Shown: piece by piece, positions 3,290-60,123 of the stretch
Position numbering within the stretch: position 1 is the stretch's first letter
How the letters are laid out: every line of letters begins with the position of its first letter
NCBI GenBank assembly: GCA_003482885.1
Contig: DMXN01000032.1
Coordinates: 13,129 to 77,128 of the forward strand
Reading direction: 5' to 3'
From: Candidatus Moraniibacteriota bacterium
Lineage (GTDB): Bacteria; Patescibacteriota; Minisyncoccia; Moranbacterales; UBA2206
Length of the DNA stretch: 64,000 bases
Program-made: the position numbers and the translations under genes
Notes under the pieces: generated by a model
What the model was told of the DNA's origin: nothing
What the model saw: the letters and a program-made list of their open reading frames with translations, nothing else
Database searches by the model: none

Positions 3290-3946
3290 CTATTCGGCCA
3301 CAATACTCTTTCCCCAAACGGTGCTTGTCCCTCCGGGACAAGTCACCACGAGAGTGGGGTGGTACTCCCCCGGCCTCTCGTAAGTATGTTCCAACACGGG
3401 ACCTCGTCCCGTGCTTCCCGTGTCGTCTCCAAAGTCCCACTCGTACGAGCACGAGCGAGAATCGACCCCCTTTGCAAAGAGGGTCTCATCGAAAAAGAAC
3501 ACCCCGAGGGGGGCGTCCCCCTCGAGATACTCGCGATTGTCATGATACGGCCCCCGACACCCGGGGGGCAGTTCACTGGTCGCACTTTCGTCAAAGTGCG
3601 ACCAGACATCCCCCACTAAGAAGGAATCCGTGAAGCTGTCCGACCCTCCCGGGCCGGTCACCGTAAGGGTTACCTCGTGGTAACCCTTACCAAAAGTATG
3701 GAAAAAAAATATGCCGGAGCCTGTTGCTCCGTCAGTTGCCGACCATACCCGGGAGGTTATCCTCCCTTTTGAGGTGGACACCGCCAATAGCTTGAAGGGG
3801 TGAACACCCGCTCCTAGCCAGGGGAAATGAACAAAATTTGCTTTCGGCCGTCCAAAAGCAAATGACTCCACCGTCGTCGCGACGGTCGTCAAACAAACTG
3901 CCACCATCAAAAATAAAAAAATCAACCACTCTTTTTTCAGATTCAT
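3290..3946 (-). CDS. Secreted protein with two PKD-like domains; GC-rich, likely horizontally acquired
   Basis: MNLKKEWLIFLFLMVAVCLTTVATTVESFA is a signal peptide, and AAGGAG lies upstream of the ATG at 3946. Two PKD-like repeats are present (…HTFGKGYHEVTLTVTGPGG… and YEWDFGDDTGSTG…HTYERPGEYHPTLVVT). GC is about 55-58% against about 33% in the flanks. Confidence 0.65.
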   Translation of the reverse strand: MNLKKEWLIFLFLMVAVCLTTVATTVESFAFGRPKANFVHFPWLGAGVHPFKLLAVSTSKGRITSRVWSATDGATGSGIFFFHTFGKGYHEVTLTVTGPGGSDSFTDSFLVGDVWSHFDESATSELPPGCRGPYHDNREYLEGDAPLGVFFFDETLFAKGVDSRSCSYEWDFGDDTGSTGRGPVLEHTYERPGEYHPTLVVTCPGGTSTVWGKSIVAE

Positions 3947-22132: not shown

Positions 22133-24724
22133 CTACGGCGCAATTGCAATATTCGTATTCACTCTTATACTTTCCGAATCCGAGTTTCCATTATCATCCG
22201 TCGCGTTGATTTTTATTTCCAAGCTGGAATTATATTTATCGCTCGGCACGGTATAGGACGCGCTGAAAGAATCGCTGCTACTGGAAGAAATATCATTGCC
22301 ATCCACACTTAATGTGGCTTTTTTAACGCCGTACGGCGCGTCGAGTTTAACGGAAATATTAAACGAAGAAGTTGTAATCGTTTGTCCGTTAGAAGGCGAA
22401 CTTATATTCGCTTGAATCTTGTACCTTGAAAAATCTTTTTCCTCGCATTCTTCGTCCGGTATGGAATCGGTAGAATAATCTTTGTCTTTCAACCATTTTT
22501 TTACGCCTTTTTCCCAATTTTCAAATTGCGAATCGCTTTTTGGATCTTTCGGCGCGTCTCCGCGAACATCATCCTTATTGATATAATATAGAATATCATG
22601 CGTAATGGAAAATTTCTTTTTCTTCACTTTGTTGTCCGGACAAGCCGAACTAGCTAAACAATATTTATCGTCCTCTCCCGGAATTTCGCAAACTTTTAAT
22701 TCTTTTTTCATTTCCAATTTTCCATCCAAAATATCTTTGCCGGTTTCCTCCGGTTCGTATTTGGGGAAATTTTCAATGTTATAATTTTTCAAAGCTTCAT
22801 CCATAAATGCCCGCCAAATCGGCGCAGCGACATAAATTCCGTCCGCTCCTTCTTTCATTATAGAATGGTCATTATTGCCCGCCCAAACGCCGGCCGCCAG
22901 CGACGGCGTATATCCCATTGTCCAACCGTCGCGCCATTCATTGGTGGTTCCGGTTTTGGCGGCCACCGGGCGATTTTCAAAACTCAAAGGATTTTTTTCG
23001 CCGAACACCGGCGCACGCAAACTATTGGTAGAAAGAATGTAGTCAATCATCGTAACATACTTTTCTTCCAACACTCGATCGCCTGCATCGGAATTATATT
23101 TTTCCAAAATATTTCCCTTACTATCCTCGATGCGCAAGATCGCTGTTTTATTATGAAGAATTCCTCCGGTGGCAAATGTGGAAAAAGCGTTGACATGATC
23201 AAGCAGCTTCACTTCTCCGCCACCCAGCACTAAAGAAAGTCCGTATCGTTCCGGTTCGGTCAAGGTTGTAATCCCCATATTTCGCGCAGTATTAATAGAA
23301 TCTTTGACGCCGGCCAAATAAAGAGTTTTCACCGCGGGAACATTTAAAGATCTTGCCAACGCGTCTTTCATTTGCATTAAGCCGGAATTTTTCCCATCAT
23401 AATTTTTTGGATTATATATTTTTCCATCATCTGTGCTGAAATTTGTGTCCGTATCCCAAATATTAGTTTCCGGCGTAAAACCTTTCGCGAACGCTGTAAG
23501 ATAAACATAAGGTTTAAAAGACGATCCCGGCTGAAGCAATGATATGGCGGCATTAACATTTGATTCAAAAACACAAGTTTTTCCCGAAGCGCAACCTTTC
23601 GGTTCGCTTTCAGCAAAATAGTCTTTACTGCCGACCATCGCTAAGATTTGTCCGGTTTTCGGATCCATCGCCACCAGCGCCACATTGGCTGCCTTATAAA
23701 TTTTGGTATTTTTTTCCGCGCCTTCCCGCACCGCTTTTTCCGCCGCTTGCTGTTTATCCCAATCGAGAGTGGTATAAACTTTCAATCCTCCCTGTTCCAC
23801 CGCCTGATCGCCGTATTTTTGCTGCAAGTAATCTTTGATATACATCACGAAATGAGGCGCCGCAAAAATATTTTTTTGCGGCTGCAATTTATCAAGAGTA
23901 CGCATATTTATCGCTTCATCAGCTTGATCTTGAGTAATATAGCCTAATTTCGCCATAGTGTTCAAAGCGAAATTTTTGCGAGCAATAAGAGCGTCCCGAT
24001 GCGAACCATAAGGAGAATAATAGGCAGTGGCTTGCGGTAAAGCGGAAATAATCGCCGCTTCGTCAAGCGTCAATTCGCGCGCCGGTTTTGCAAAAAATGT
24101 TTGCGCTGCCGCTTCAATTCCGTAAGCGTTAGATCCGTAAGGAATTTCGTTGAGGTACATCGTCAAAATTTCGTCTTTGGAAAATTTTGTTTCCACTTCC
24201 AGCGAGAGAATAACTTCTTTGATTTTTCTGATTAAAGATTTTTCGTTGGTGAGCAAAGAATTTTTCACCAGCTGCTGCGTAATAGTGGAACCGCCTTGCG
24301 CTTTGCCGAAATTTATCACATCTTTTAAAACCGCGCGGATAATCGAAGTTAATTTTATGCCGTGATGATTGTAAAAATCTTGGTCTTCAAGACTGATAGT
24401 GGCGTATTTTATGACATCCGGCATTTCAACAAAAGGAATTTGCGTTCTTTTTTCCTCGCCGTGGACTTCATAAAGCAAATGGTCACCAGAGCGATCATAA
24501 ATTTTTGTCGATTCGATAATCACCCGACTGCTGATTTTATCCGGGCTGGGCAGGTCTTTATAAAAATAGGCGAAAATTCCGGCAGAAATTAAAATGCCCA
24601 CCACTATCGCAATACCAAAAATTCTAAAAATCCATTTCCAAATCTTCCGCCATTTTAAAGCATTTTTTTTGGAAGAATAAACAGGAATTTTAGGCGAAAA
24701 AATGTTTTGCATAAGATAAGGCAC
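22133..24724 (-). CDS. Penicillin-binding protein 1A (GT51 transglycosylase plus transpeptidase) with a C-terminal Ig-like/Cys extension
   Basis: N-terminal TM. GT51 motifs ISLEDQDFYNHHGIKLTSIIRA and GGSTITQQLVKN, and transpeptidase motifs SSFKP and KTGTT. The track start at 24724 is GTG; the first ATG is at 24712. Confidence 0.85.
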   Translation of the reverse strand: MPYLMQNIFSPKIPVYSSKKNALKWRKIWKWIFRIFGIAIVVGILISAGIFAYFYKDLPSPDKISSRVIIESTKIYDRSGDHLLYEVHGEEKRTQIPFVEMPDVIKYATISLEDQDFYNHHGIKLTSIIRAVLKDVINFGKAQGGSTITQQLVKNSLLTNEKSLIRKIKEVILSLEVETKFSKDEILTMYLNEIPYGSNAYGIEAAAQTFFAKPARELTLDEAAIISALPQATAYYSPYGSHRDALIARKNFALNTMAKLGYITQDQADEAINMRTLDKLQPQKNIFAAPHFVMYIKDYLQQKYGDQAVEQGGLKVYTTLDWDKQQAAEKAVREGAEKNTKIYKAANVALVAMDPKTGQILAMVGSKDYFAESEPKGCASGKTCVFESNVNAAISLLQPGSSFKPYVYLTAFAKGFTPETNIWDTDTNFSTDDGKIYNPKNYDGKNSGLMQMKDALARSLNVPAVKTLYLAGVKDSINTARNMGITTLTEPERYGLSLVLGGGEVKLLDHVNAFSTFATGGILHNKTAILRIEDSKGNILEKYNSDAGDRVLEEKYVTMIDYILSTNSLRAPVFGEKNPLSFENRPVAAKTGTTNEWRDGWTMGYTPSLAAGVWAGNNDHSIMKEGADGIYVAAPIWRAFMDEALKNYNIENFPKYEPEETGKDILDGKLEMKKELKVCEIPGEDDKYCLASSACPDNKVKKKKFSITHDILYYINKDDVRGDAPKDPKSDSQFENWEKGVKKWLKDKDYSTDSIPDEECEEKDFSRYKIQANISSPSNGQTITTSSFNISVKLDAPYGVKKATLSVDGNDISSSSSDSFSASYTVPSDKYNSSLEIKINATDDNGNSDSESIRVNTNIAIAP

Positions 24725-24725
24725 T

Positions 24726-24759
24726 TTTTAAGCTCCTTATAGTTTAGTTGAAAATTGAG
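24726..24759. repeat. Copy A of a ~34-bp direct repeat bracketing AbiE pair #1; contains the PBP1A RBS
   Basis: tttttaagctccttatagtttagttgaaaattgag. On the minus strand it supplies AAGGAG 8 nt before the PBP1A GTG start. Copy B lies at 26188-26223, with 30 of 34 positions matching. Confidence 0.4.
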
Positions 24760-24780
24760 GAAGTATCAGCATACTTTTAA

Positions 24781-25500
24781 TCAAATATTTTTATCTATTT
24801 CCCTAATAAGCATCTGCCGGAAATTCTTGATGATTGAATGAAAAGAAGCTGGTAAAAATCGTTTCAATTCTCCAGAAAAATTTATATCAGACTTTAAAAT
24901 AAGACTTTTTATTTCTGCTAATTTGTTTTTTTGCTCCGGCATAATCAGTCTTCCGCGCAAAAGAAAATATATATCAAAAAAATCGCGGGGCTTTTGGCGC
25001 GACAATGCTGCTTGAATTTTTTCACCAATCAATTGTTTTGCATTCAAACACACCAAAGTATAACTTGGCAAAAAATCAGAAACTATTGCATGCAATTCTC
25101 CAATAAATTTGGTTTTCTTACGATTGGAAATTTCCAATCGTAATTGAATTGAAAAATCAAAAAATTTACAGATAAAAATTGCCAAAAAACCACCAGAAGT
25201 GGCCTTGGATTCTTGCAAATCAGTTTTAATATTAAAATTTTGCATATTTTTCAAAGTCGCAATCAATAAACTCTCAAGAACTTCCACGGAAAGATTAGAA
25301 GAAAAATCAAGATCTTCGGAAAAGCGCGGAGAATCAAAAATAATTCGCAATGCCGTGCCACCTTTGAAAAAAATATTTTCGCTTTGCGACAATTGATAAA
25401 ATTGCGACAAAAAAATATGCTGGCAATATTCTTGCGCCACATTGAAATCCGAAGTTTGTAATTTTACGGACAATTTTCTAATTTGCTCTTGCGTCATCAT
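24781..25500 (-). CDS. AbiEii/AbiGii-family nucleotidyltransferase toxin (type IV TA), pair #1
   Basis: FFKGGTALRIIFDSPRFSEDLDFSS is the hallmark of the PF08843 family; it overlaps the upstream antitoxin gene by 23 nt. Confidence 0.8.
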   Translation of the reverse strand: MMTQEQIRKLSVKLQTSDFNVAQEYCQHIFLSQFYQLSQSENIFFKGGTALRIIFDSPRFSEDLDFSSNLSVEVLESLLIATLKNMQNFNIKTDLQESKATSGGFLAIFICKFFDFSIQLRLEISNRKKTKFIGELHAIVSDFLPSYTLVCLNAKQLIGEKIQAALSRQKPRDFFDIYFLLRGRLIMPEQKNKLAEIKSLILKSDINFSGELKRFLPASFHSIIKNFRQMLIREIDKNI

Positions 25501-26092
25501 AAAGTTTAGAAACCAAATTATCTATTTGAGAATCGTTAAATAATTTCTGCCATTGCCTTATTTTTTTCTTTATTAAATGAGAAACATCCAGCCTATCATT
25601 GAGTTCAGTTTTTTTTCGGGACAAATAATACAGATAGTCCATTAATGCTTTTTCTGGCTCAGCAATTAAAAATTTTTCATTGTTTTTCTCAATAAGACAA
25701 TATCCGGTAAATAATTTTTTTTTAATTTTGTTGTAGGAAAAATCCTGATCCATTGCCATGAACGAGCGAGTAGCTTTTGAAGAAATAGAGGTAATGGAAT
25801 AAGTTTTTTCCGGAATTATATTATAAAAAGACAAGGCGGATTCCAATGAGATATAAGACGGTTGATAAATTTTATTGGCAACTACGAATACGCTCGGTTT
25901 AATTGAAGCTAGGCAATAAAGTCCGTTTTTGAGTTTTAAAAAGAATTTTTTTTGAGTATATCGACCTATAAATTTGCTAACAGCAAGAGGGGATGTGCTA
26001 AAAATCCTTTGAAACTCGCGCGGACTAAAAATTGCGACATTGCTTTCCAAGAGTTTTTGTTGGACAATCAATGGATTCATTTTTTTTACCAT
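25478..26092 (-). CDS. AbiEi-family antitoxin/transcriptional regulator, pair #1 (probable ATG start at 26092 or 26080)
   Basis: …NGLYCLASIKPS…YQPSYISLESALSFYNIIPE matches the AbiEi_4 pattern. The track start at 26128 is TTG and overlaps the predicted -10 box, so a downstream ATG (MVKKMNPLIV) is preferred. Confidence 0.7.
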   Translation of the reverse strand: MVKKMNPLIVQQKLLESNVAIFSPREFQRIFSTSPLAVSKFIGRYTQKKFFLKLKNGLYCLASIKPSVFVVANKIYQPSYISLESALSFYNIIPEKTYSITSISSKATRSFMAMDQDFSYNKIKKKLFTGYCLIEKNNEKFLIAEPEKALMDYLYYLSRKKTELNDRLDVSHLIKKKIRQWQKLFNDSQIDNLVSKLYDDARAN

Positions 26093-26119
26093 ATAGTATG
26101 AAAAGTGAATTACGCAATC

Positions 26120-26148
26120 ATTATACAAATCCCTTATTTTTCTGTCAA
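26120..26148 (-). promoter_or_regulatory. Consensus sigma70-type promoter driving AbiE pair #1
   Basis: Minus strand reads TTGACA (26148..26143), a 17-nt spacer, then TATAAT (26125..26120). This is a perfect consensus hexamer pair. Confidence 0.45.
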
Positions 26149-26187
26149 ATTCACATCATGGCTCATAATTTAAACTAAAAAACCGAA

Positions 26188-26223
26188 TTTTTAAGCTCTT
26201 TGTAGTTTAGTTTAAAATTTGAG
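26188..26223. repeat. Copy B of the ~34-bp direct repeat bracketing AbiE pair #1
   Basis: tttttaagctctttgtagtttagtttaaaatttgag lies 27 nt downstream of the DUF1704 stop codon. Confidence 0.4.
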
Positions 26224-26249
26224 AAAAATCAAGACAAAACTAAAAAAAA

Positions 26250-27569
26250 TTATTTTTCCAAATCTTCCAAGTCAGCATCATTTATTCCAAGTTGCTCAAG
26301 TATCCAGATGTGTCTAGGATTAGTTGGATCATATTTTCCGACAGAAAATCTTTTAATTTCTTCGGGATTGCTTTTCGCAACATCCCAAATCCCAATATTT
26401 CCTTCTCGATACACAATATCTCGCGTAAGACATGCTCCGGGTGTCTGGCAAGTTGTTCCTCGAAATGTTCGCACACATCTATTCCACGCACTAATTTGAG
26501 CAAAAGATAATACCTCCGCACCTTCTTTTTTTGAAGTAATTAAAAAATAATCTTTCAGAATTTCAAAAACTTGTCGAAAATTTCTTTTTTTGCCATCCAA
26601 GCCAGCAGCTAAAGATATTGCAAGATGTCCATCAAGACCGGAAAATTCTTCCGCTCCTTTTATAGTTTGCTCTTTATAAGTGGCAATACCTTCTTCTCCT
26701 TTTAGATACCTGTCCAGTCCTAATCCTAATATTTTCAATTTTGATCTTTCTCCATTTTCTCTTCGCAAAACATGCGTTTCTATTTCATGCGCTATTAATG
26801 TTTGCAACTCCAGCGCTTTAAGTTTTCTTTTTTCAGGAATAAAGACTTTCTTTTTTTCCTGATTTACATTAATAGCTTTTATCTTTCCTTCTTTTTCAAT
26901 AATAACCTCCCAATTTTTTAATTTATGCGCTTCAAGCGCAGATTCAAAAGCCGTTTTTATTTCTTCAGCGGTATATTCTGATTTATCGTCCACTTCAACC
27001 TTAGAAAGTTTATTGCCAAAATTTATAGTGCTTTCATTATTCATGAAAGCTTCAAATAATTCTTTATTGATCCTTTTTGCGGCGCTGTTTATTTCAGAAT
27101 TAGCACTAAATATTTTTTGGTCTACTATGGTTTTGAGTTGAGAAAGCGTATATTCATAAATTTCTTTTTCCGGCTGTCCATAAATAAATTTAGAATATCT
27201 TGCCACATTGCGGTCATCGCCGGATTTAGTTTTTTTTAACATTCTTAATTCAGCCAACTTTTCATTTATTTTCCAGCGATAAACTTGACTGACTACTTTA
27301 TTTTTTTCTTCGGCTATAATTTCATTTTTAAGTTGCAAAAGAGCTGTTTCTTTTTCGTCAAAATCAAAAGTTTCCAAATCAGGATAATCCAATGATGGAT
27401 TTTCGATTTCTCCGGAAATAAACTTATTTTTTTGATTTTCTCTAAAGTTCTTTTCTCCGTTCAAATACGAATAATCAGAAAAAGACCCGCTTTTTTCAAA
27501 TCTTTCATACCATTTATCATCAAATGCCTCATGCTTTTCAGTGGAAAATGAGGGTTGTTCAAAGGACAT
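26250..27569 (-). CDS. DUF1704 (QEGLA-motif) MATCAP-like HExxH metallopeptidase
   Basis: LIAHEIETHVLR (HExxH) is followed by YLKGEEGIATYKEQ (QEGLA-like). 439 aa, at the downstream end of the ATP-grasp operon. Confidence 0.55.
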   Translation of the reverse strand: MSFEQPSFSTEKHEAFDDKWYERFEKSGSFSDYSYLNGEKNFRENQKNKFISGEIENPSLDYPDLETFDFDEKETALLQLKNEIIAEEKNKVVSQVYRWKINEKLAELRMLKKTKSGDDRNVARYSKFIYGQPEKEIYEYTLSQLKTIVDQKIFSANSEINSAAKRINKELFEAFMNNESTINFGNKLSKVEVDDKSEYTAEEIKTAFESALEAHKLKNWEVIIEKEGKIKAINVNQEKKKVFIPEKRKLKALELQTLIAHEIETHVLRRENGERSKLKILGLGLDRYLKGEEGIATYKEQTIKGAEEFSGLDGHLAISLAAGLDGKKRNFRQVFEILKDYFLITSKKEGAEVLSFAQISAWNRCVRTFRGTTCQTPGACLTRDIVYREGNIGIWDVAKSNPEEIKRFSVGKYDPTNPRHIWILEQLGINDADLEDLEK

Positions 27570-39105: not shown

Positions 39106-39282
39106 ATGAGTCAAGTTTGCCAAGTTTGCGGCCGTGGTTCCGGATCGGGACATACCGTCAGCCATTCTAATGTTAAAACCTTGCGAAAATTTCGCGTCAA
39201 TTTGCAAAGCAAAAAAATCGATGGCGCAAAAACCAAAGTTTGCGCTAATTGCATAAAAACAATGTCAAAGAGGGGGAGATAG
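39106..39282 (+). CDS. rpmB: 50S ribosomal protein L28
   Basis: [38 protein letters not shown]…; 58 aa. Confidence 0.8.
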
Positions 39283-39304: not shown

Positions 39305-39343
39305 CAAAAAATCCTCCGAGCTTTCGCAAGGCGGATTTTTTGA
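39305..39343. terminator. rpmB terminator hairpin; copy 1 of a 38-bp repeat flanking AbiE pair #3
   Basis: aaaaaatcctccgagctttcgcaaggcggatttttt. It is nearly identical to the hairpin at 40877-40914, with one mismatch in the stem. Confidence 0.55.
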
Positions 39344-39344
39344 T

Positions 39345-40175
39345 TTATAGCTTCGCATTGATTAGATTCTTTAAAATATTTTTCATATTTTTGCTGACAT
39401 TTTTTATATAATTCGCATCATCAATAAATGCTTCCAAATCCAATTCGATGCTTTTGGTGTCGGCTTTTTTAATATTGTCCAAAAGTATTTTCTTCAAGTC
39501 TTCTAAATTTTTCACATTTTCAATGCAAGAAATATTCGGAATAATTTCTTTTTCCAAATACCACATCAAATCAAAATAATCACGACCTTTAACCATCACT
39601 AAATCATTACCGTTTTTATCCGTTTTTTTCCACTGCCGGTTAAGAACCGCTCGAATTTTTGTCGCCATCAAAGTCGGCAAATCAAATGATTTTATCAAAA
39701 TAGACTTATTATATTTGAATAACGGCAAAATTTCGGTTTTATATTTTTTGCAAAAATCGAATCCGGAAAAAATTTCCACTTTCAAAAACAATAAGTCCGA
39801 CTCGCTTTTTAAGGACAAACCGATTTCATTGAGAATTGGAAATTTCAAATACACTCGAAATTTCTGCGCTGTTGTTTTGACCTGAAAACTATATTTGGCT
39901 TTAAAGAAACTTTCCAAATCACTTTTCAATTCAGTAATATCAACTTCTTTTTTCAAATCGACAAAATCCAAATCCTCGGAAAGCCGCGGCAATTTATGGC
40001 ACTGCGCAAGACACGACCCGCCATAAAAAACCAAATCGCTGTAACGCGGATGGGAATAAATAAAATCCAAAACCAAAATCTGCAAATAATCTTTGAGCAA
40101 ATTACGGTTGTACAGCGCGCTTTTCGAAGATGAATTCTGCAATAAATTTTTTAACTCTTCTTTAAGTCTTTCCAT
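39345..40175 (-). CDS. AbiEii-family nucleotidyltransferase toxin, pair #3
   Basis: LVFYGGSCLAQCHKLPRLSEDLDFVDLKK. Confidence 0.75.
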   Translation of the reverse strand: MERLKEELKNLLQNSSSKSALYNRNLLKDYLQILVLDFIYSHPRYSDLVFYGGSCLAQCHKLPRLSEDLDFVDLKKEVDITELKSDLESFFKAKYSFQVKTTAQKFRVYLKFPILNEIGLSLKSESDLLFLKVEIFSGFDFCKKYKTEILPLFKYNKSILIKSFDLPTLMATKIRAVLNRQWKKTDKNGNDLVMVKGRDYFDLMWYLEKEIIPNISCIENVKNLEDLKKILLDNIKKADTKSIELDLEAFIDDANYIKNVSKNMKNILKNLINAKL

Positions 40176-40819
40176 AGTTTTATTAAAATATTATAAAGCT
40201 CGCGCATTTTTTCTGATTTTTCCAGTTCAATATATTTTTTTAATTCGCTGATGTCATTGCTTTTTAATTCGCTTAAATTCAAACGCAATTCTTTGATCGC
40301 ACTTTCGGATAATAACATTTTTTTTCGAAAATACAAAAAATCAAAAAGCGCTTTGGCGACAGTCGCTTTTTTAAATGAAAAATTATTTTCTTTTAAAATC
40401 TTAAAACCGCAAAATAATTCAGGCTTAATGCTATGGTAATAAAAATTGTCTAAATTATTTGTCAACAGCTTTGTCTTTTTAAGAGCAACTGCCGTATAAT
40501 TTTTCGGCATTTCCGTTAAAAGATTATTTTCGGACAAAATATAATCCATGCTCAAATAGCTCGGTTCATAGATTATTCCGGAAACAAATTCTTCGTATCC
40601 GGTAAATAGATTTTTTCTTTTAATATCCTCTATATAATCAGCAGAAACATACATGCCTTTTTTAAGGCGAATGATTTTTCCGTTTTTTGAAAAACGCGAA
40701 AGCAGAACACGCAAAAAATGCCGGTTTTTTTCAATAGAAAAAACACTCTCCAGTGTAAAATACGGCAAAGTCTTCAAATGGTTTATTATATTGGCTGTTT
40801 TCGATATGTCATTTCTCAT
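40151..40819 (-). CDS. AbiEi-family antitoxin, pair #3
   Basis: …KGMYVSADY…YEPSYLSMDYILSENNLLTE; overlaps the toxin start by 25 nt. Confidence 0.7.
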   Translation of the reverse strand: MRNDISKTANIINHLKTLPYFTLESVFSIEKNRHFLRVLLSRFSKNGKIIRLKKGMYVSADYIEDIKRKNLFTGYEEFVSGIIYEPSYLSMDYILSENNLLTEMPKNYTAVALKKTKLLTNNLDNFYYHSIKPELFCGFKILKENNFSFKKATVAKALFDFLYFRKKMLLSESAIKELRLNLSELKSNDISELKKYIELEKSEKMRELYNILIKLWKDLKKS

Positions 40820-40876
40820 AATATACTACTATTGTATATTATGAGAAACAACTTGTCAAGTCAAGCAAACCAAAAC

Positions 40877-40940
40877 AAAAAAATCCTCCGAGCTTTCGCA
40901 AGGAGGATTTTTTTGTCCCCTCTCCTTGCTAAGGAGAGGG
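40877..40940. terminator. Tandem hairpins downstream of ndk: copy 2 of the 38-bp repeat plus a 10-bp-stem hairpin
   Basis: aaaaaaatcctccgagctttcgcaaggaggattttttt (perfect 13-bp stem) and ccctctcctt-gct-aaggagaggg (40918-40940). Confidence 0.55.
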
Positions 40941-41687: not shown

Positions 41688-42866
41688 TTATTCTTTCAAG
41701 CTATCTATTTTTTTCAAATCAAAAATATTTTTTATCAGCATTTTTTTCTCAACAGCAAACTCATCAAACAGTTTTTTCTGTTCTTTATTCATTTCTGAAT
41801 TATACTTCGCTTCAATCAATGTTTTTCTTTCCGTCAAAAAATCAATTTCATTTTTTTCTCGATAAACATAGCGCGGATTGAGTTTTTTTATTTTCAAATA
41901 GACATAATTTTCAAATAAACTGCCCTTATCGCGAAAACCGGTAAAATATACGCGGATTCCCAAATCTGCGGCATAGATTTTCTTAGCGGATAATAATCGC
42001 TCGTTGGTTTTCCCGAAACGCGACACTAAAAAAATCAGATATGAATCAGCGAACATTTTCAAATATCTCTTGGCTGAATCTGGAGATATATCCAAAATTT
42101 TAGCGATTTTATTGATACTAATAATCTTGCCGGCTCTTTCCATAAGCAAAAGAAAAAAATCCTTAAGAATCTGCGTGTCTTTCACTCCATAGAAAGCGGC
42201 AATATCTTTTTGAATTATATCATCCACTAATTCTTTCAAATATTCAGTATTGCCGGTTAAGACATATTCAGGCATTCCGCCGGTTCGCATAAAATCCTCA
42301 AAATGGCGTTCCAATAAATGCTTATCAGTTTTTTTGACTATAATTTTTTTAAATCGCAAATATTCCTCAAAATCCAACGGTAAAACTTCAAGCGCGATAT
42401 TTCGTCCGGTTAAAAAAGCCTTCTTGCTTTTCAAAAGCGAAGCACTGGATGAAGAAGCGAAAATTTTAACATTTTGCTGATCATAAATATTTTTAAGCTG
42501 CAACTCAAAATCTTTTTGATAAGCGACTTCGTCCAAAAAAAGATAAACTTTTTTAGAAAAAACGATTTTATGAATTTTTCGATATTCATCGATAATTTCC
42601 AAAATATTTTTATTGGCCAAAAGATAATCATCCATACTCGCGTAAAAAATCAATTTTGGGTTGATTTTCATTTCAGCTATAAGATAATAAATAAGTTGCT
42701 TCATTAAGGTGGTTTTGCCAACACGCCGCAGTCCGGTCAAGAAAATGATCTGCTTGGTAGCTAAATTATCTTTTAGCGCTTCAAAAATTTGCGGTCTGTC
42801 AATAATGTTTTTTAGCTCAAATTCACCTTCCCACCAAGGATTATAACGATACAATATTTGTTCCAT
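41688..42866 (-). CDS. AAA+ ATPase (AAA_14 plus DUF4143 type)
   Basis: NPWWEGEFE…IIFLTGLRRVGKTTLMKQL is the Walker A region, with the typical ~390-aa architecture. Confidence 0.75.
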   Translation of the reverse strand: MEQILYRYNPWWEGEFELKNIIDRPQIFEALKDNLATKQIIFLTGLRRVGKTTLMKQLIYYLIAEMKINPKLIFYASMDDYLLANKNILEIIDEYRKIHKIVFSKKVYLFLDEVAYQKDFELQLKNIYDQQNVKIFASSSSASLLKSKKAFLTGRNIALEVLPLDFEEYLRFKKIIVKKTDKHLLERHFEDFMRTGGMPEYVLTGNTEYLKELVDDIIQKDIAAFYGVKDTQILKDFFLLLMERAGKIISINKIAKILDISPDSAKRYLKMFADSYLIFLVSRFGKTNERLLSAKKIYAADLGIRVYFTGFRDKGSLFENYVYLKIKKLNPRYVYREKNEIDFLTERKTLIEAKYNSEMNKEQKKLFDEFAVEKKMLIKNIFDLKKIDSLKE

Positions 42867-53931: not shown

Positions 53932-54057
53932 ATTTTTATTTTTTCCTTGCTCGGGAATTAACCTCCCAATCGCAAAGATTTTTAATAAATAAAAAAGAAG
54001 CCGGATTCACCCGCTTCCTTTACTGTATTTATAGTGTACACCGATTGAACGAAAAAG

Positions 54058-54771
54058 TCAAGAAAAATCGCCCGAACTTTTTTTCAATCCTTCGCGATAA
54101 AGTTTCAGTTGAAATATCAAATCTTTTTTCAAGTTATTTTTCACCCAATCTTTTTGTTTGGCATCCAGCAATTCTCCCAAACCTTGCAAGATATATTTGT
54201 TGTCAAATTTTTCCAAAATCTCTATAGATTTTTCGATATAATCAAGAATATTTTTTTTTGTTTTTTTAACAATCGTTTCTTTATTAATATCCCAATGTTT
54301 TGAGAAAAAGCAATGAACATCAAAAAAATCACGCGAGGCTGTTTTTTTTCTGTCCGCCAGCGCCGCCAATTTGCAAGCAAACATATCGCCTGGTTCCATA
54401 ACTTTCATTGAAATGCCGAGATAATCTTTTACTAAAAACTTTCCGGCGCTTCCTCTTCTCGAAATTTCTATTTTAATATTTCTTTCATTTTTTCCGTACG
54501 AAAGCAGAAAAAAAATAGTATAACGCTTTATATGTTTTTCCATGATTTCCCCATGCTTTGAAAGAATTTTTTCCAACTCCACAAAAACTACTTTTTCTTT
54601 TTCCTCGCTTAATAAATCAAAATCCAGATCAACGCTATAGCGAGGTAAATCATAAAAAAGATACGCCGCCGTACCACCCTTAAATCCCAAATAAGGCGCG
54701 ACAGAAAGCGTTTCATAAATATCTTTTAAAATTTCAACCATTGCGGTTTTGTGCAATTCCCAATTAAGCAT
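54058..54771 (-). CDS. AbiEii-family nucleotidyltransferase toxin, pair #4
   Basis: LGFKGGTAAYLFYDLPRYSVDLDFD. Confidence 0.75.
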   Translation of the reverse strand: MLNWELHKTAMVEILKDIYETLSVAPYLGFKGGTAAYLFYDLPRYSVDLDFDLLSEEKEKVVFVELEKILSKHGEIMEKHIKRYTIFFLLSYGKNERNIKIEISRRGSAGKFLVKDYLGISMKVMEPGDMFACKLAALADRKKTASRDFFDVHCFFSKHWDINKETIVKKTKKNILDYIEKSIEILEKFDNKYILQGLGELLDAKQKDWVKNNLKKDLIFQLKLYREGLKKSSGDFS

Positions 54772-55333
54772 AGTTTTTTTTGTAAAAAGTTATATGTTCT
54801 TCCGTTTTTTTATTGCCGTAAATCGGCGCAAGAGCCAAGCATTCTTTCCAATCGATATTTTTTAAATTGTCAAAATAATAGTTGGGGTTAATATAAATCA
54901 TATCGAGAAACGCTCGTTCTTTATTGGCTATAGAAAAACCATTTTCTTTTCGAACTCCGTATTGATTCAAAAGCGCGGTTTTTTTTATTTTCCGGTAAAC
55001 TATTTTTTGACCGTTTGCCAATTCGATTTCTCTTGAAAAACAACCAGCCGCAAAAATCGTTTCGTAGTGCTGAAAAATAACTCCTTCATTTCTAAGCACG
55101 GTTTCAAAGCTGATATACGATGGGGAATAAATTTTTGCCACCGCCTCATAAATATTATATTCCAACTTTGCGTAGATTCCTCGTCTAAGATGGACGAGAT
55201 TGCCTTTATTAGTATAATATTTAAGACTGGCTTTAAGTTTATTCAGATTGTCTTCACCCCAAATCAAGCCTATTTCACTGGCCGTAAAAACGGTGTTTTT
55301 AGTTTGATAAAGGCTTAGAATGCGGTTTTCCAT
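54764..55333 (-). CDS. AbiEi-family antitoxin, pair #4
   Basis: …LRRGIYAKLEY…YSPSYISFETVLRNEGVIFQ; 8-nt overlap with the toxin. Confidence 0.7.
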   Translation of the reverse strand: MENRILSLYQTKNTVFTASEIGLIWGEDNLNKLKASLKYYTNKGNLVHLRRGIYAKLEYNIYEAVAKIYSPSYISFETVLRNEGVIFQHYETIFAAGCFSREIELANGQKIVYRKIKKTALLNQYGVRKENGFSIANKERAFLDMIYINPNYYFDNLKNIDWKECLALAPIYGNKKTEEHITFYKKNYA

Positions 55334-55552
55334 ATTTTTGGTGAACCAAAGGTAATAAATTTTCTTACCTTTAGTCTACACCATTTCGGAAAAACTGTCA
55401 ATCATTTGACTTTTCCCCCATTTCGTGCTAAATTATTCAGTCGTTTCACATAGAGTGAAACAATATGGCTCAAAGGAAAAAAAGGGCCAATAGTTGGCTC
55501 TTTGACAAATTTTGATAGGAAATTAAAATTCAAGTATTTAGGAGGTAGGGAT

Positions 55553-58608: not shown

Positions 58609-59106
58609 TTACAAACTCGCGCTTAAGATTGCGTCGATTGTTTCAATGACAATATACCCGGAAAGCGCCACTGCCAATCCGATAATGGAAGCCGTCATAG
58701 TTTTTTTGGCGGTTTCCATCATTTTTTCATCCGCCGCCGCCAAATAATACTGAACGCCGGCAATCACAAGGCCGATCACCGCCAAAATTCCAATTAAACT
58801 CAAGAGCCAATCGGCGACATTTTCAATAATGCCTTTCACTAAACCGGCATTAGTCGGTAAACCGGCCAACTCGTCCGGAACAATTTCGCTCTCGCTGCCG
58901 GCTTTCTCACAGCAATTATTGTTTGCAAGATCACAAGCAACAGCAGTCTTCAGAATGTCACTATTGGGACAATCGAGCGATGGAATGCCAGGGTATGGAT
59001 AGCAATATCCGCCGGAATCCGTACAGGCATCCGCTTGCGCGTTATTAACCAAGCAAAAACTGAAAATGAAAAATAAAGTTAAAATTAAAAATATTTTTTT
59101 TGACAT
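58609..59106 (-). CDS. VirB2/TrbC-like pilin-family protein with a Cys-rich N-terminal domain (paralogue 1 of 4)
   Basis: Signal peptide, then 8 Cys (DACTDSGGYCYPYPGIPSLDCPNSD…CDLANNNCCEKAG), then a conserved two-helix module (VADWLLSLIGILAVIGLVIAGVQYYLAAADEKMMETAKKTMTASIIGLAVALSGY). Confidence 0.55.
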   Translation of the reverse strand: MSKKIFLILTLFFIFSFCLVNNAQADACTDSGGYCYPYPGIPSLDCPNSDILKTAVACDLANNNCCEKAGSESEIVPDELAGLPTNAGLVKGIIENVADWLLSLIGILAVIGLVIAGVQYYLAAADEKMMETAKKTMTASIIGLAVALSGYIVIETIDAILSASL

Positions 59107-59111
59107 AAAGT

Positions 59112-59480
59112 TTAAAATAAATAATCAGCGTTTAACATATAATCCACCGCGGTAACAACCACCACTCCGGAAAGCGCCACAATTACTCCATAAATCGAAG
59201 CCATCATTGCGCTTTTAGCAGTTTTCATTTTAGCGTCATCCCCCGCCGAAGTTAAATACATCAAACCGGAAATTATAAAACCAATCACGCCGGCGATTCC
59301 CACTAGCGTTAAAAGCCAATCAAGAATATTGGAAATAATACCATAGATGCCCTCAATAGGATCGGGCAGACCAAAACCCGACACATCAAGCAGATCCCAA
59401 CCGCCAATAGCGGTTTTTTTAAACCCGAACAAAAACACCAAGCTCAAAACCGCGATGGATAAAAAATTTTTTGATTTCAT
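59112..59480 (-). CDS. VirB2/TrbC-like pilin-family protein (paralogue 2)
   Basis: Signal peptide plus the module ILDWLLTLVGIAGVIGFIISGLMYLTSAGDDAKMKTAKSAMMASIYGVIVALSGVVVV. Confidence 0.55.
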   Translation of the reverse strand: MKSKNFLSIAVLSLVFLFGFKKTAIGGWDLLDVSGFGLPDPIEGIYGIISNILDWLLTLVGIAGVIGFIISGLMYLTSAGDDAKMKTAKSAMMASIYGVIVALSGVVVVTAVDYMLNADYLF

Positions 59481-59494
59481 TTTTCTTGTTTTTC

Positions 59495-59661
59495 TTTGTC
59501 ATTCCCGCGAAGGCGGGGATCTAGGTTCCACTAAACTATTTACTACAACAAATCAAATTATATTTTTTATTTTATACTACTTTGCACTAATTGTATTAAT
59601 TTGTTTTTTCTTTATATAAAACTTGTGGTGACTGGATCCCCGCCTTCGCGGGGATGACAAT
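59495..59661. mobile_element. MITE-like 167-bp element: GC-rich 27-bp terminal inverted repeats around an AT-rich core
   Basis: The left end is ttgtcattcccgcgaaggcggggatc. The right end is gatccccgccttcgcggggatgacaa, which matches 26 of 27 positions when reverse-complemented. Each end is itself a small GC hairpin (cccgc-gaag-gcggg). Confidence 0.4.
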
Positions 59662-59707
59662 AAGAAATTATAAAATTATTATCTATACTGTATCACAAAA
59701 AACAAAA

Positions 59708-59740
59708 TAAAAATAGTCCGCCATGGCGGACTATTTTTTA
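59708..59740 (-). terminator. Terminator of pilin paralogue 3
   Basis: tagtccgcc-at-ggcggacta is a perfect 9-bp stem with A and T runs on either side. Confidence 0.5.
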
Positions 59741-59766
59741 ACTTTTGCAAATATATATTTTCAAAA

Positions 59767-60123
59767 CTAGAATGTCGCGCCACCCAATAAGCCACTGGCC
59801 GCTCTAAGCGCCACCACGCCGGCAATCGCCACAAGCACTCCGATAATCGAAGCAACCATCGCGCTTTTAGCTTTCTTGATTTTATCTTCATCTCCGGCCG
59901 CCGTCAGATATAAAATTCCGGAAATCGCGAAACCGATTACTCCGGCAATCCCGATCGCGGTCAAAAGCCAGTTCATAATATTAGCGACAATATTCATAAC
60001 GGATTCTTCAGGAAGACCAGTTCCCCCTCCCGCGGTCGGATCAAAAGCTCCGAATACAATCGCCGGCGCTGCTAATGCCGCAACTGAAATCCCATAAGCC
60101 AATCCTCTAATTTTATTTTTCAT
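59767..60123 (-). CDS. VirB2/TrbC-like pilin-family protein (paralogue 3)
   Basis: Signal peptide plus IMNWLLTAIGIAGVIGFAISGILYLTAAGDEDKIKKAKSAMVASIIGVLVAIAGV. Confidence 0.55.
   Translation of the reverse strand: MKNKIRGLAYGISVAALAAPAIVFGAFDPTAGGGTGLPEESVMNIVANIMNWLLTAIGIAGVIGFAISGILYLTAAGDEDKIKKAKSAMVASIIGVLVAIAGVVALRAASGLLGGATF

Follow-up and report, generated by a model that had tools for sequence, protein, structure and literature searches.

A 64,000-nt stretch of a Candidatus Moranbacteria genome, from the Candidate Phyla Radiation (CPR), was analyzed over its full length (contig DMXN01000032.1, positions 13,129 to 77,128; hereafter, the window). It encodes three gene pairs of the AbiE type, a type IV toxin-antitoxin and abortive-infection system, at positions 24781-26128, 39345-40819, and 54058-55333, which share 24-30% mutual identity. 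The main subject here is pair #1 and the DNA on both sides of it. The genes of this locus lie on the minus strand and, in the direction of transcription, follow the order MATCAP/DUF1704, AbiEi, AbiEii, PBP1A. The upstream neighbor (26250-27569) is assigned to MATCAP/DUF1704 by its match to PF08014 (4.6e-27) and by its synteny with PBP1A in related genomes, and the downstream one (22133-24724) was recognized by profile search as PBP1A, with transglycosylase and transpeptidase domains. Passages in earlier studies of the family (PMC3985639, PMC7319586, PMC11375011) describe AbiEii as a DUF1814 nucleotidyltransferase toxin, whose relatives modify tRNA, and AbiEi as a protein that neutralizes the toxin and represses the promoter through inverted repeats. 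By analogy with these family members, AbiEii of pair #1 would arrest growth, whereas AbiEi would neutralize it and repress their common promoter.

The toxin gene of pair #1 (24781-25500, minus strand, 239 amino acids) is a clear match to PF08843 (7.1e-23; 82 bits against a cutoff of 22.5 bits) and to the PADLOC model of AbiEii (7e-26), and the GG...EDLD motifs are readable in its translation. The antitoxin/regulator gene (25478-26092, minus strand, 204 amino acids) matches the PADLOC AbiEi model at 2.6e-42 but the NCBIfam TAA_AbiEi model only at 2.6e-7, with 30.5 bits against a cutoff of 150 bits; a Pfam profile search gave no match. Judged by these scores, the protein is a divergent member of the AbiEi family. 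The two genes overlap by 23 nt and form a bicistronic unit, antitoxin first, with one promoter upstream. They thereby resemble the AbiEi/AbiEii systems of Lactococcus and Streptococcus agalactiae and the MenA/MenT relatives of Mycobacterium tuberculosis, which likewise combine overlapping genes, a DUF1814 nucleotidyltransferase toxin, an AbiEi-family antitoxin, and a promoter immediately upstream. They differ from these systems in the low mutual identity of the pairs in the window and in the weak matches to curated AbiEi models (none in Pfam, below cutoff in NCBIfam). In addition, S. agalactiae AbiE has long inverted-repeat operators; none is visible at pair #1, and pair #2 has one.

The promoter, a perfect sigma-70-type TTGACA-N17-TATAAT (26120-26148, minus strand), is, as an earlier reading of the DNA letters and open reading frames (hereafter, the sequence-only reading) had noticed, the single perfect match to this consensus in the window, against 0.05 expected by chance. 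The same reading placed the true start of AbiEi downstream of the mechanically assigned TTG, and this placement holds. The TTG at 26128 abuts the -10 box on its upstream side; the first ATG, at 26092 (MVKK...), is kept in orthologous cassettes and chosen by gene callers, and conservation does not extend to the second ATG. On other assemblies, AbiEi of pair #1 is called as 204 or 200 amino acids; its annotated start should be set to ATG 26092. The cassettes of two metagenome loci, L024 and L033 (L-numbers designate fetched metagenome loci), lie in unrelated contexts and share the -35 and -10 boxes and, downstream, the block AATTCAyTTTT..TACTATATGG; the block AATTCAyTTTT..TACTATATGGTAAAAAAA is conserved alongside the promoter and ATG 26092 in orthologous cassettes. 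Thus, the suggestion that this promoter is part of imported cargo is borne out by its conservation at unrelated sites.

Pair #1 is bracketed by a direct repeat. Its two copies, A (24725-24759) and B (26188-26223), differ by 3 mismatches and 1 indel; local alignment of the flanks extends the match to 39 nt (24725-24762 versus 26188-26226, 34/39 identical) with a score of 51, compared to a maximum of 29 in 300-500 shuffles. A three-way alignment with the single-copy spacer of the related locus L071 delimits the duplicated segment as TGAT...CTTAAAAA, which occupies 24725-24769 (copy A) and 26188-26233 (copy B), both on the minus strand. Copy B, the upstream one, lies 16 nt past the MATCAP stop codon (26250-26252). 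Copy A, the downstream one, abuts the GTG codon of PBP1A at 24724 and contains AAGGAG (24738-24733), 8 nt upstream of this codon; the corresponding ribosome-binding site (RBS) in copy B is degenerated to AAAGAG. The repeat, its position, and its content agree with the sequence-only reading, which reported repeats of about 34 bp, one just past the DUF1704 stop, with nothing but the AbiEi and AbiEii genes between them. Its proposal that copy A supplies the RBS of PBP1A is plausible rather than certain: the spacing to GTG 24724 fits and the L019 protein begins with MPYY, but the start could also be ATG 24712, the equivalent of that in L071. Copy A may also carry the PBP1A promoter, CTGATA-17-TAAACT. 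A possible extension of copy B beyond CTTAAAAA, to a relic of the PBP1A ATG, was rejected as not significant (p about 0.35). The repeat matches no known RNA family and has no stable fold (z = -1.5 and 0.0).

Between the copies lies a 1,418-nt segment (24770-26187) that consists of a 38-nt filler, the promoter, AbiEi, AbiEii, and an 11-nt tail. Searches for terminal inverted repeats linking its ends and for integrase, transposase, or phage genes in the segment or the neighboring genes found none. Carriage of the cassette by a phage was considered and rejected, as viral contigs held no relatives of it.

Among the observations that, according to the sequence-only reading, would undo its interpretation is that the repeat is a generic RBS or 5'-untranslated region (UTR) motif present upstream of many genes. 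The sequence is AT-rich and includes an RBS, so that similarity by chance or by such a motif had to be considered. Nevertheless, a degenerate 32-nt pattern of the repeat has two matches in the 64-kb window, both at pair #1, where none is expected by chance, and occurs twice per genome copy, and no more, in contigs of the same strain; no shuffle reached the observed score. A direct-repeat scan of the whole window found just two short high-identity pairs, one around pair #1 and the other around AbiE pair #2. A generic motif is thereby excluded, and the likelihood that the similarity is fortuitous is negligible.

Eight relatives (L071, L001, L019, L006, L008, L009, L010, and L012) encode MATCAP followed directly by PBP1A, with no AbiE genes between them. 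The closest relative found is L071, whose MATCAP is 72% identical at the amino acid level and whose 66-nt spacer contains one copy of the repeat; in the other seven, the gap is 50-220 nt. The L071 spacer aligns to both copies in the window. Its alignment with copy A (64/83) runs on into PBP1A, and that with copy B (50/67; score 37, against a shuffle maximum of 32) begins beside the MATCAP stop. Among the 44 columns common to A, B, and L071, 29 are invariant and A and B agree against L071 at 7, so the two copies are each other's closest relatives. Relative to the L071 copy, 6 changes are private to B and 2 to A; copy B, with its AAGGAG changed to AAAGAG, looks like a decaying relic, and the copy on the PBP1A side is better conserved. 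Four contigs from different samples (L066-L069) span the cassette and match the window over 24600-26400, which shows that this structure is not an assembly artifact. The comparison of orthologous junctions therefore supports the earlier proposal of an insertion that duplicated the sequence between DUF1704 and PBP1A.

The same comparison bears on a two-step history, in which the spacer was first duplicated in tandem and the cassette later entered between the copies, or, in a variant, the cassette was ancestral and has been lost from the relatives by recombination between the repeats. If recombination between the repeats had removed the cassette, precisely the single copy observed in the relatives would remain. 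However, the cassette is missing in all eight syntenic relatives, including the closest one, and none of them has a tandem duplicate of the spacer, that is, a repeat pair with nothing between its copies. Since the same architecture recurs at many unrelated sites (see below), a single-step process is more parsimonious, and we regard both forms of this history as very unlikely.

A cassette orthologous to pair #1 (AbiEii 84% identical at the amino acid level) is found in L024, between an AAA_14/DUF4143 ATPase gene and an MmeI-type restriction-modification (RM) gene, where it is flanked by an unrelated 69-bp repeat with 99% identity. DNA homology between the two cassettes sets in about 5 nt before the -35 box and goes no further than the toxin stop codon; the distance from the upstream repeat to the -35 box is 38 nt in the window and 95 nt in L024, and these segments are not homologous. 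With homology so limited, the promoter travels with the genes, and the repeats are supplied by each target. On this sequence evidence, the flanking repeats are target DNA, not a part of the element.

This comparison speaks against the view that the repeats are attL and attR sites, produced when a small integrative cassette, similar to those of integrons or integrative mobilizable elements, was integrated by a site-specific recombinase supplied in trans. Att sites typically appear as direct repeats of 30-70 bp, and the repeats of pair #2 and L024 form hairpins that are superficially attC-like. But orthologous cassettes have unrelated repeats (39-46 nt versus 69 nt), conservation ends at the -35 box on one side and at the stop codon on the other, the repeated sequence belongs to the host, as its native spacer or terminator, and has a single copy in relatives, the repeat lengths range from 23 to 107 nt among loci, and there is no integrase or cassette array at the locus. 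This view is accordingly highly improbable. Toxin-antitoxin cassettes of integrons are similar in being compact units with a 3' boundary a few nucleotides past the stop codon and with similar bracketing sequences. They differ in that the cassette described here has no attC, integrase, or array, carries its own promoter, which most integron cassettes lack, and is bracketed by host target DNA of a sequence specific to each site. Capture by an integron was rejected on the same grounds, including the insignificant fold of the pair #1 repeat.

AbiE pair #2 shows a comparable arrangement. Together with its own promoter (TTGACA at 40859-40854 and TACAAT at 40836-40831), it occupies 39345-40859 on the minus strand and is bracketed by two 36-nt hairpin copies with 97% identity. 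The upstream copy (40878-40913, minus strand; fold z = -5.8) follows ndk, and the downstream one (39306-39341, minus strand; z = -4.8) begins 3 nt past the AbiEii2 stop codon and faces the convergent gene rpmB (about 39106-39282, plus strand). In L074 and L075 (Ndk 91% identical at the amino acid level), the ndk-rpmB site is empty: the 117-nt spacer contains one hairpin, whose left side matches the left flank of copy 1 in the window and whose right side matches the right flank of copy 2. The duplicated target of pair #2 is, by its predicted fold and position, a shared bidirectional terminator. An inverted repeat with 24-nt arms (40803-40826 and 40834-40857), 13 nt of which match perfectly, covers the -10 box and the abiEi2 start codon and is a good candidate for the AbiEi operator. 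A perfect 17-bp inverted repeat (cgtttccatatactgtc / gacagtatatggaaacg) is found at the same relative position in L054 and L057.

Locus L073 (1230-1600; Ndk 96% identical at the amino acid level) has the left junction of pair #2, with a hairpin copy and the TTGACA..ataatatacaat promoter. It diverges straight after the -10 box and contains no abiEi in the remaining 300 nt, the contig ending at 1600; this may reflect decay or replacement of the cassette at the pair #2 site. Just upstream of ndk, the window encodes an AAA_14/DUF4143 ATPase (41688-42866, minus strand), where L074 and L075 have recA. No repeat was seen in its flanks; the gene may represent a further mobile single-gene cassette.

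The frequency of such repeats was estimated from 27 evaluable AbiE units, some located in the window and others in metagenome loci retrieved with AbiEii; their 400-nt flanks were aligned at a score threshold of 40, with 507 pseudo-units of 1.4 kb as controls. This score was reached or exceeded by 11 of the 27, compared with 6 of the 507 controls. The latter include one unmasked AbiE pair, one tRNA pair, and one multi-copy repeat; another we read, by its sequence alone, as a repeated ATPase domain inside one gene. The clean independent cases are the window pairs #1 and #2 (W#1 and W#2), L024 (69 bp), L034 (46 bp, 100% identity), L036 (a toxin-first pair; 45 bp), L054/L057 (62-78 bp), and L028 (23 bp). 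The repeats in L032/L039/L048 and L046/L047 were rejected as clean cases, being low-complexity arrays at orthologous sites, and those at L046 (283-331) and L049 were not taken for target duplications, since from sequence alone they resemble a multi-copy palindromic element. Across loci, the repeats are 23 to 107 nt long, the downstream repeat starts 0-11 nt past the last stop codon, and the upstream filler is 6 to 96 nt. The duplicated pieces are typically expression signals of the neighboring genes: an RBS and 5' UTR in W#1, terminators in W#2 and L024, and an RBS with the first 26 codons of an aldehyde dehydrogenase gene in L054. The piece duplicated in L034 comprises codons 7-22 of an aminotransferase gene, and that in L036 is the 3' end of a gene.

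The repeat lengths and the cassette ends also argue against a non-autonomous transposon with the repeats as its target-site duplication. The geometry, with a duplicated target on both sides of the insert, fits such an element. However, footprints of known transposases are typically under 10 bp, with 19-26 bp reported for IS1630 (PMC2853133), and the duplications described here exceed these by far and vary more in length. Terminal inverted repeats are lacking, and the ends of the W#1 cassette are not those of the L024 cassette. A transposon would thus be an extremely improbable source of this structure. A DNA transposon or a miniature inverted-repeat transposable element was rejected for the lack of terminal inverted repeats and because the duplications, at 23 to 107 nt, have no fixed length.

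The repeat in L034 (866-932 and 2366-2431) is a mosaic. Its upstream relic, encoding MVKGRSIIAAAGHKFRTRNISK*, duplicates the 5' end of the downstream aminotransferase gene; within this one relic gene start, the first 21 nt of the two copies differ at 11 positions and the next 46 nt at none. This pattern hints that gene conversion or recombination with a foreign, diverged allele is sometimes involved. Close relatives of L034 were sought for a comparison of the mosaic alleles; the best match was 74% identical.

The L034 mosaic, with its identical and diverged parts, is one of three observations that would suit a different origin of the cassette, namely, transfer from a related strain of Moranbacteria in which repeat, cassette, and repeat were already in place at this locus, by homologous recombination through the flanks or by Campbell-type integration of a circle excised at the repeats. 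In this scheme, the mosaic would reflect recombination between diverged alleles. RecA is encoded in L074, and the left junction of pair #2 in L073 indicates that junctions are inherited or shared between lineages. Such a transfer would explain the spread of the cassette but not its origin, for which a first target-duplicating event is still needed. The 7 of 44 columns at which A and B agree against L071 fit a duplication within the lineage, and no donor was found. We consider an origin from such a donor strain unlikely.

Several observations weigh against an insertion of pair #1 with duplication of its target. All 21 of the 21 contigs that encode an identical MATCAP protein also carry the cassette, and no empty site was found at the strain level; with the nearest relative at 72% amino acid identity in MATCAP, the exact junctions and any microhomology are not readable. 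The GC content of the cassette (31-32%, versus 37 ± 4.7%) is within the local range, and we rejected it as a sign of foreign origin because the difference is not decisive. The sequence-only reading expected AbiEi to autorepress the pair #1 promoter; an operator for it is not evident there, where the search for inverted repeats gave a 7-nt one (GTGAATT/AATTCAC) that L024 does not share. Significant flank repeats are missing from about 16 of the 27 AbiE units, among them pair #3 (54058-55333; score 22-30). The positives L032/L039/L048, L046/L047, and L054/L057 are of low complexity or mutually orthologous, which leaves about 7 independent clean events. Finally, a table of the junctions across loci revealed no consistent microhomology, and the data as a whole show no feature that separates the candidate enzymologies.

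On balance, we conclude, with a probability of roughly three in four, that pair #1 is a self-contained, horizontally acquired AbiE module that was inserted into the MATCAP-PBP1A spacer with a long target duplication, about 45 nt on each side. The host spacer would have been roughly 66-69 nt, of which some 45 nt ended up on both sides of the insert; the downstream copy would keep serving PBP1A with its RBS and possibly its promoter, and the upstream copy would be a decaying relic.

As to the way in which such an insertion could occur, we tentatively favor the joining of incoming linear DNA into a break cut about 45 nt apart, in which gap filling would copy the target, so that host repair would produce a transposition-like geometry. 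A somewhat weaker candidate is a template switch during replication, by which the target would be copied again, and homology-anchored recombination on one side only, the third option, is doubtful.

Insertion with long target duplication has been described for RM gene units (Nobusato et al. 2000, Gene 259:99; Furuta, Abe & Kobayashi 2010, NAR 38:2428, PMC2853133). This class is defined by repeats of >30 bp that are variable in length and single-copy at the empty site, and by the absence of mobility genes; it covers RM units of all types, mostly from naturally competent species, and the authors tentatively invoke DNA breakage by the cargo (PMC2853133). Pairs #1 and #2 have collinear relatives without the insert (8 for pair #1; L074 and L075 for pair #2) and repeats of 39-46 and 36 nt, respectively, close to the 46-47 bp examples of that study. 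The pair #1 insert is far below the 20-kb limit, and its repeat is not multi-copy in the window or in contigs of the same strain. In both instances, direct repeats of more than 30 bp, which vary between events and are unique in the genome, enclose a small addiction-type unit that has no mobility genes, and the type of rearrangement is alike. Unlike the RM units, the cargo here is a type IV toxin-antitoxin pair without a nuclease; its host, a CPR bacterium, has a very compact genome, and the duplicated segments are expression signals of the neighbors (5' UTR and RBS, terminator, gene 5' ends). The AbiE module itself is thus ordinary; its footprint belongs to a known class, with a new kind of cargo and in a new group of hosts. 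Among the papers searched, none reports this footprint for toxin-antitoxin cargo. Because AbiE has no nuclease, breakage of DNA by the cargo cannot explain the AbiE cases, which argues that the mechanism belongs to the host or to DNA uptake and repair rather than to the cargo.

Two cassettes thus have verified empty sites, and about 40% of the related AbiE units (11/27) bear the footprint of mobile RM units, which recurs often enough to merit a systematic census. These data bear on the poorly understood question of how toxin-antitoxin and other small defense modules move without plasmids, phages, or transposons. It is possible, although we would not put it at even odds, that long, variable target duplication is a general, cargo-independent, host-encoded, and previously undescribed route by which addiction-type defense cassettes enter the compact gene boundaries of CPR genomes. 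Such a route would carry AbiE and possibly Fic/DOC and AAA_14/DUF4143 ATPase genes, and would unify these with the RM cases from the Kobayashi group. Insertion would be harmless, with the promoter, RBS, or terminator of the neighbor duplicated, and the repeats would make the insert excisable, so that cargo harmful to lose would persist. We suggest that the footprint is seen mainly around addictive cargo because an insert between long flanking repeats is readily deleted by recombination, and cargo whose loss is harmful would survive to be observed. As a corollary, addictive cargo should be over-represented among inserts with long flanking repeats.

Since the expression signals are copied, an insertion can fall directly at the border of an essential gene (PBP1A, ndk/rpmB) in a streamlined genome and leave that gene intact. 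In addition, no terminator-like site or significant RNA fold was found between the abiEii stop codon and PBP1A (24725-24800), and for this reason PBP1A is probably also transcribed from the cassette promoter. An essential cell-wall gene would then be read in part from a foreign promoter, probably an autoregulated one, with which it may now be co-transcribed.

Other genes in the metagenome loci are bracketed by repeats as well. These include the AAA_14/DUF4143 ATPase gene in L028 (4866-4942 and 6396-6472) and an FkbM methyltransferase gene in L046. In L003, a 3.2-kb island with genes for an HTH-Fic/DOC protein and a DUF5701 protein adjoins the MATCAP homologue on its upstream side and lies between the two copies of a 65-nt direct repeat (96-160 and 3320-3385). 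In two genomes, represented by L011 (266-762, 2149-2236, and 3345-3396) and L020 (7044-8613), the MATCAP homologues are surrounded by several copies of a repeat of about 30-90 nt (ccaggttctaacatagtccgttaccgccaac...), which looks like a small interspersed element.

Pair #3 is flanked by two promoter-like sites (54033-54061 and 55373-55401), TTGACA-17-TAGACT upstream and TTGACT-17-TACACT downstream, which have in common only TTGAC..GGTGTA(G/C)ACTA. They could be a decayed duplication of the promoter of the downstream gene, or a coincidence. Elsewhere in the window (58638-59992), a 194-nt segment is present in three copies, 60-71% identical and spaced by 509 and 652 nt, in three adjacent small open reading frames on the minus strand, which look like tandem paralogous genes.

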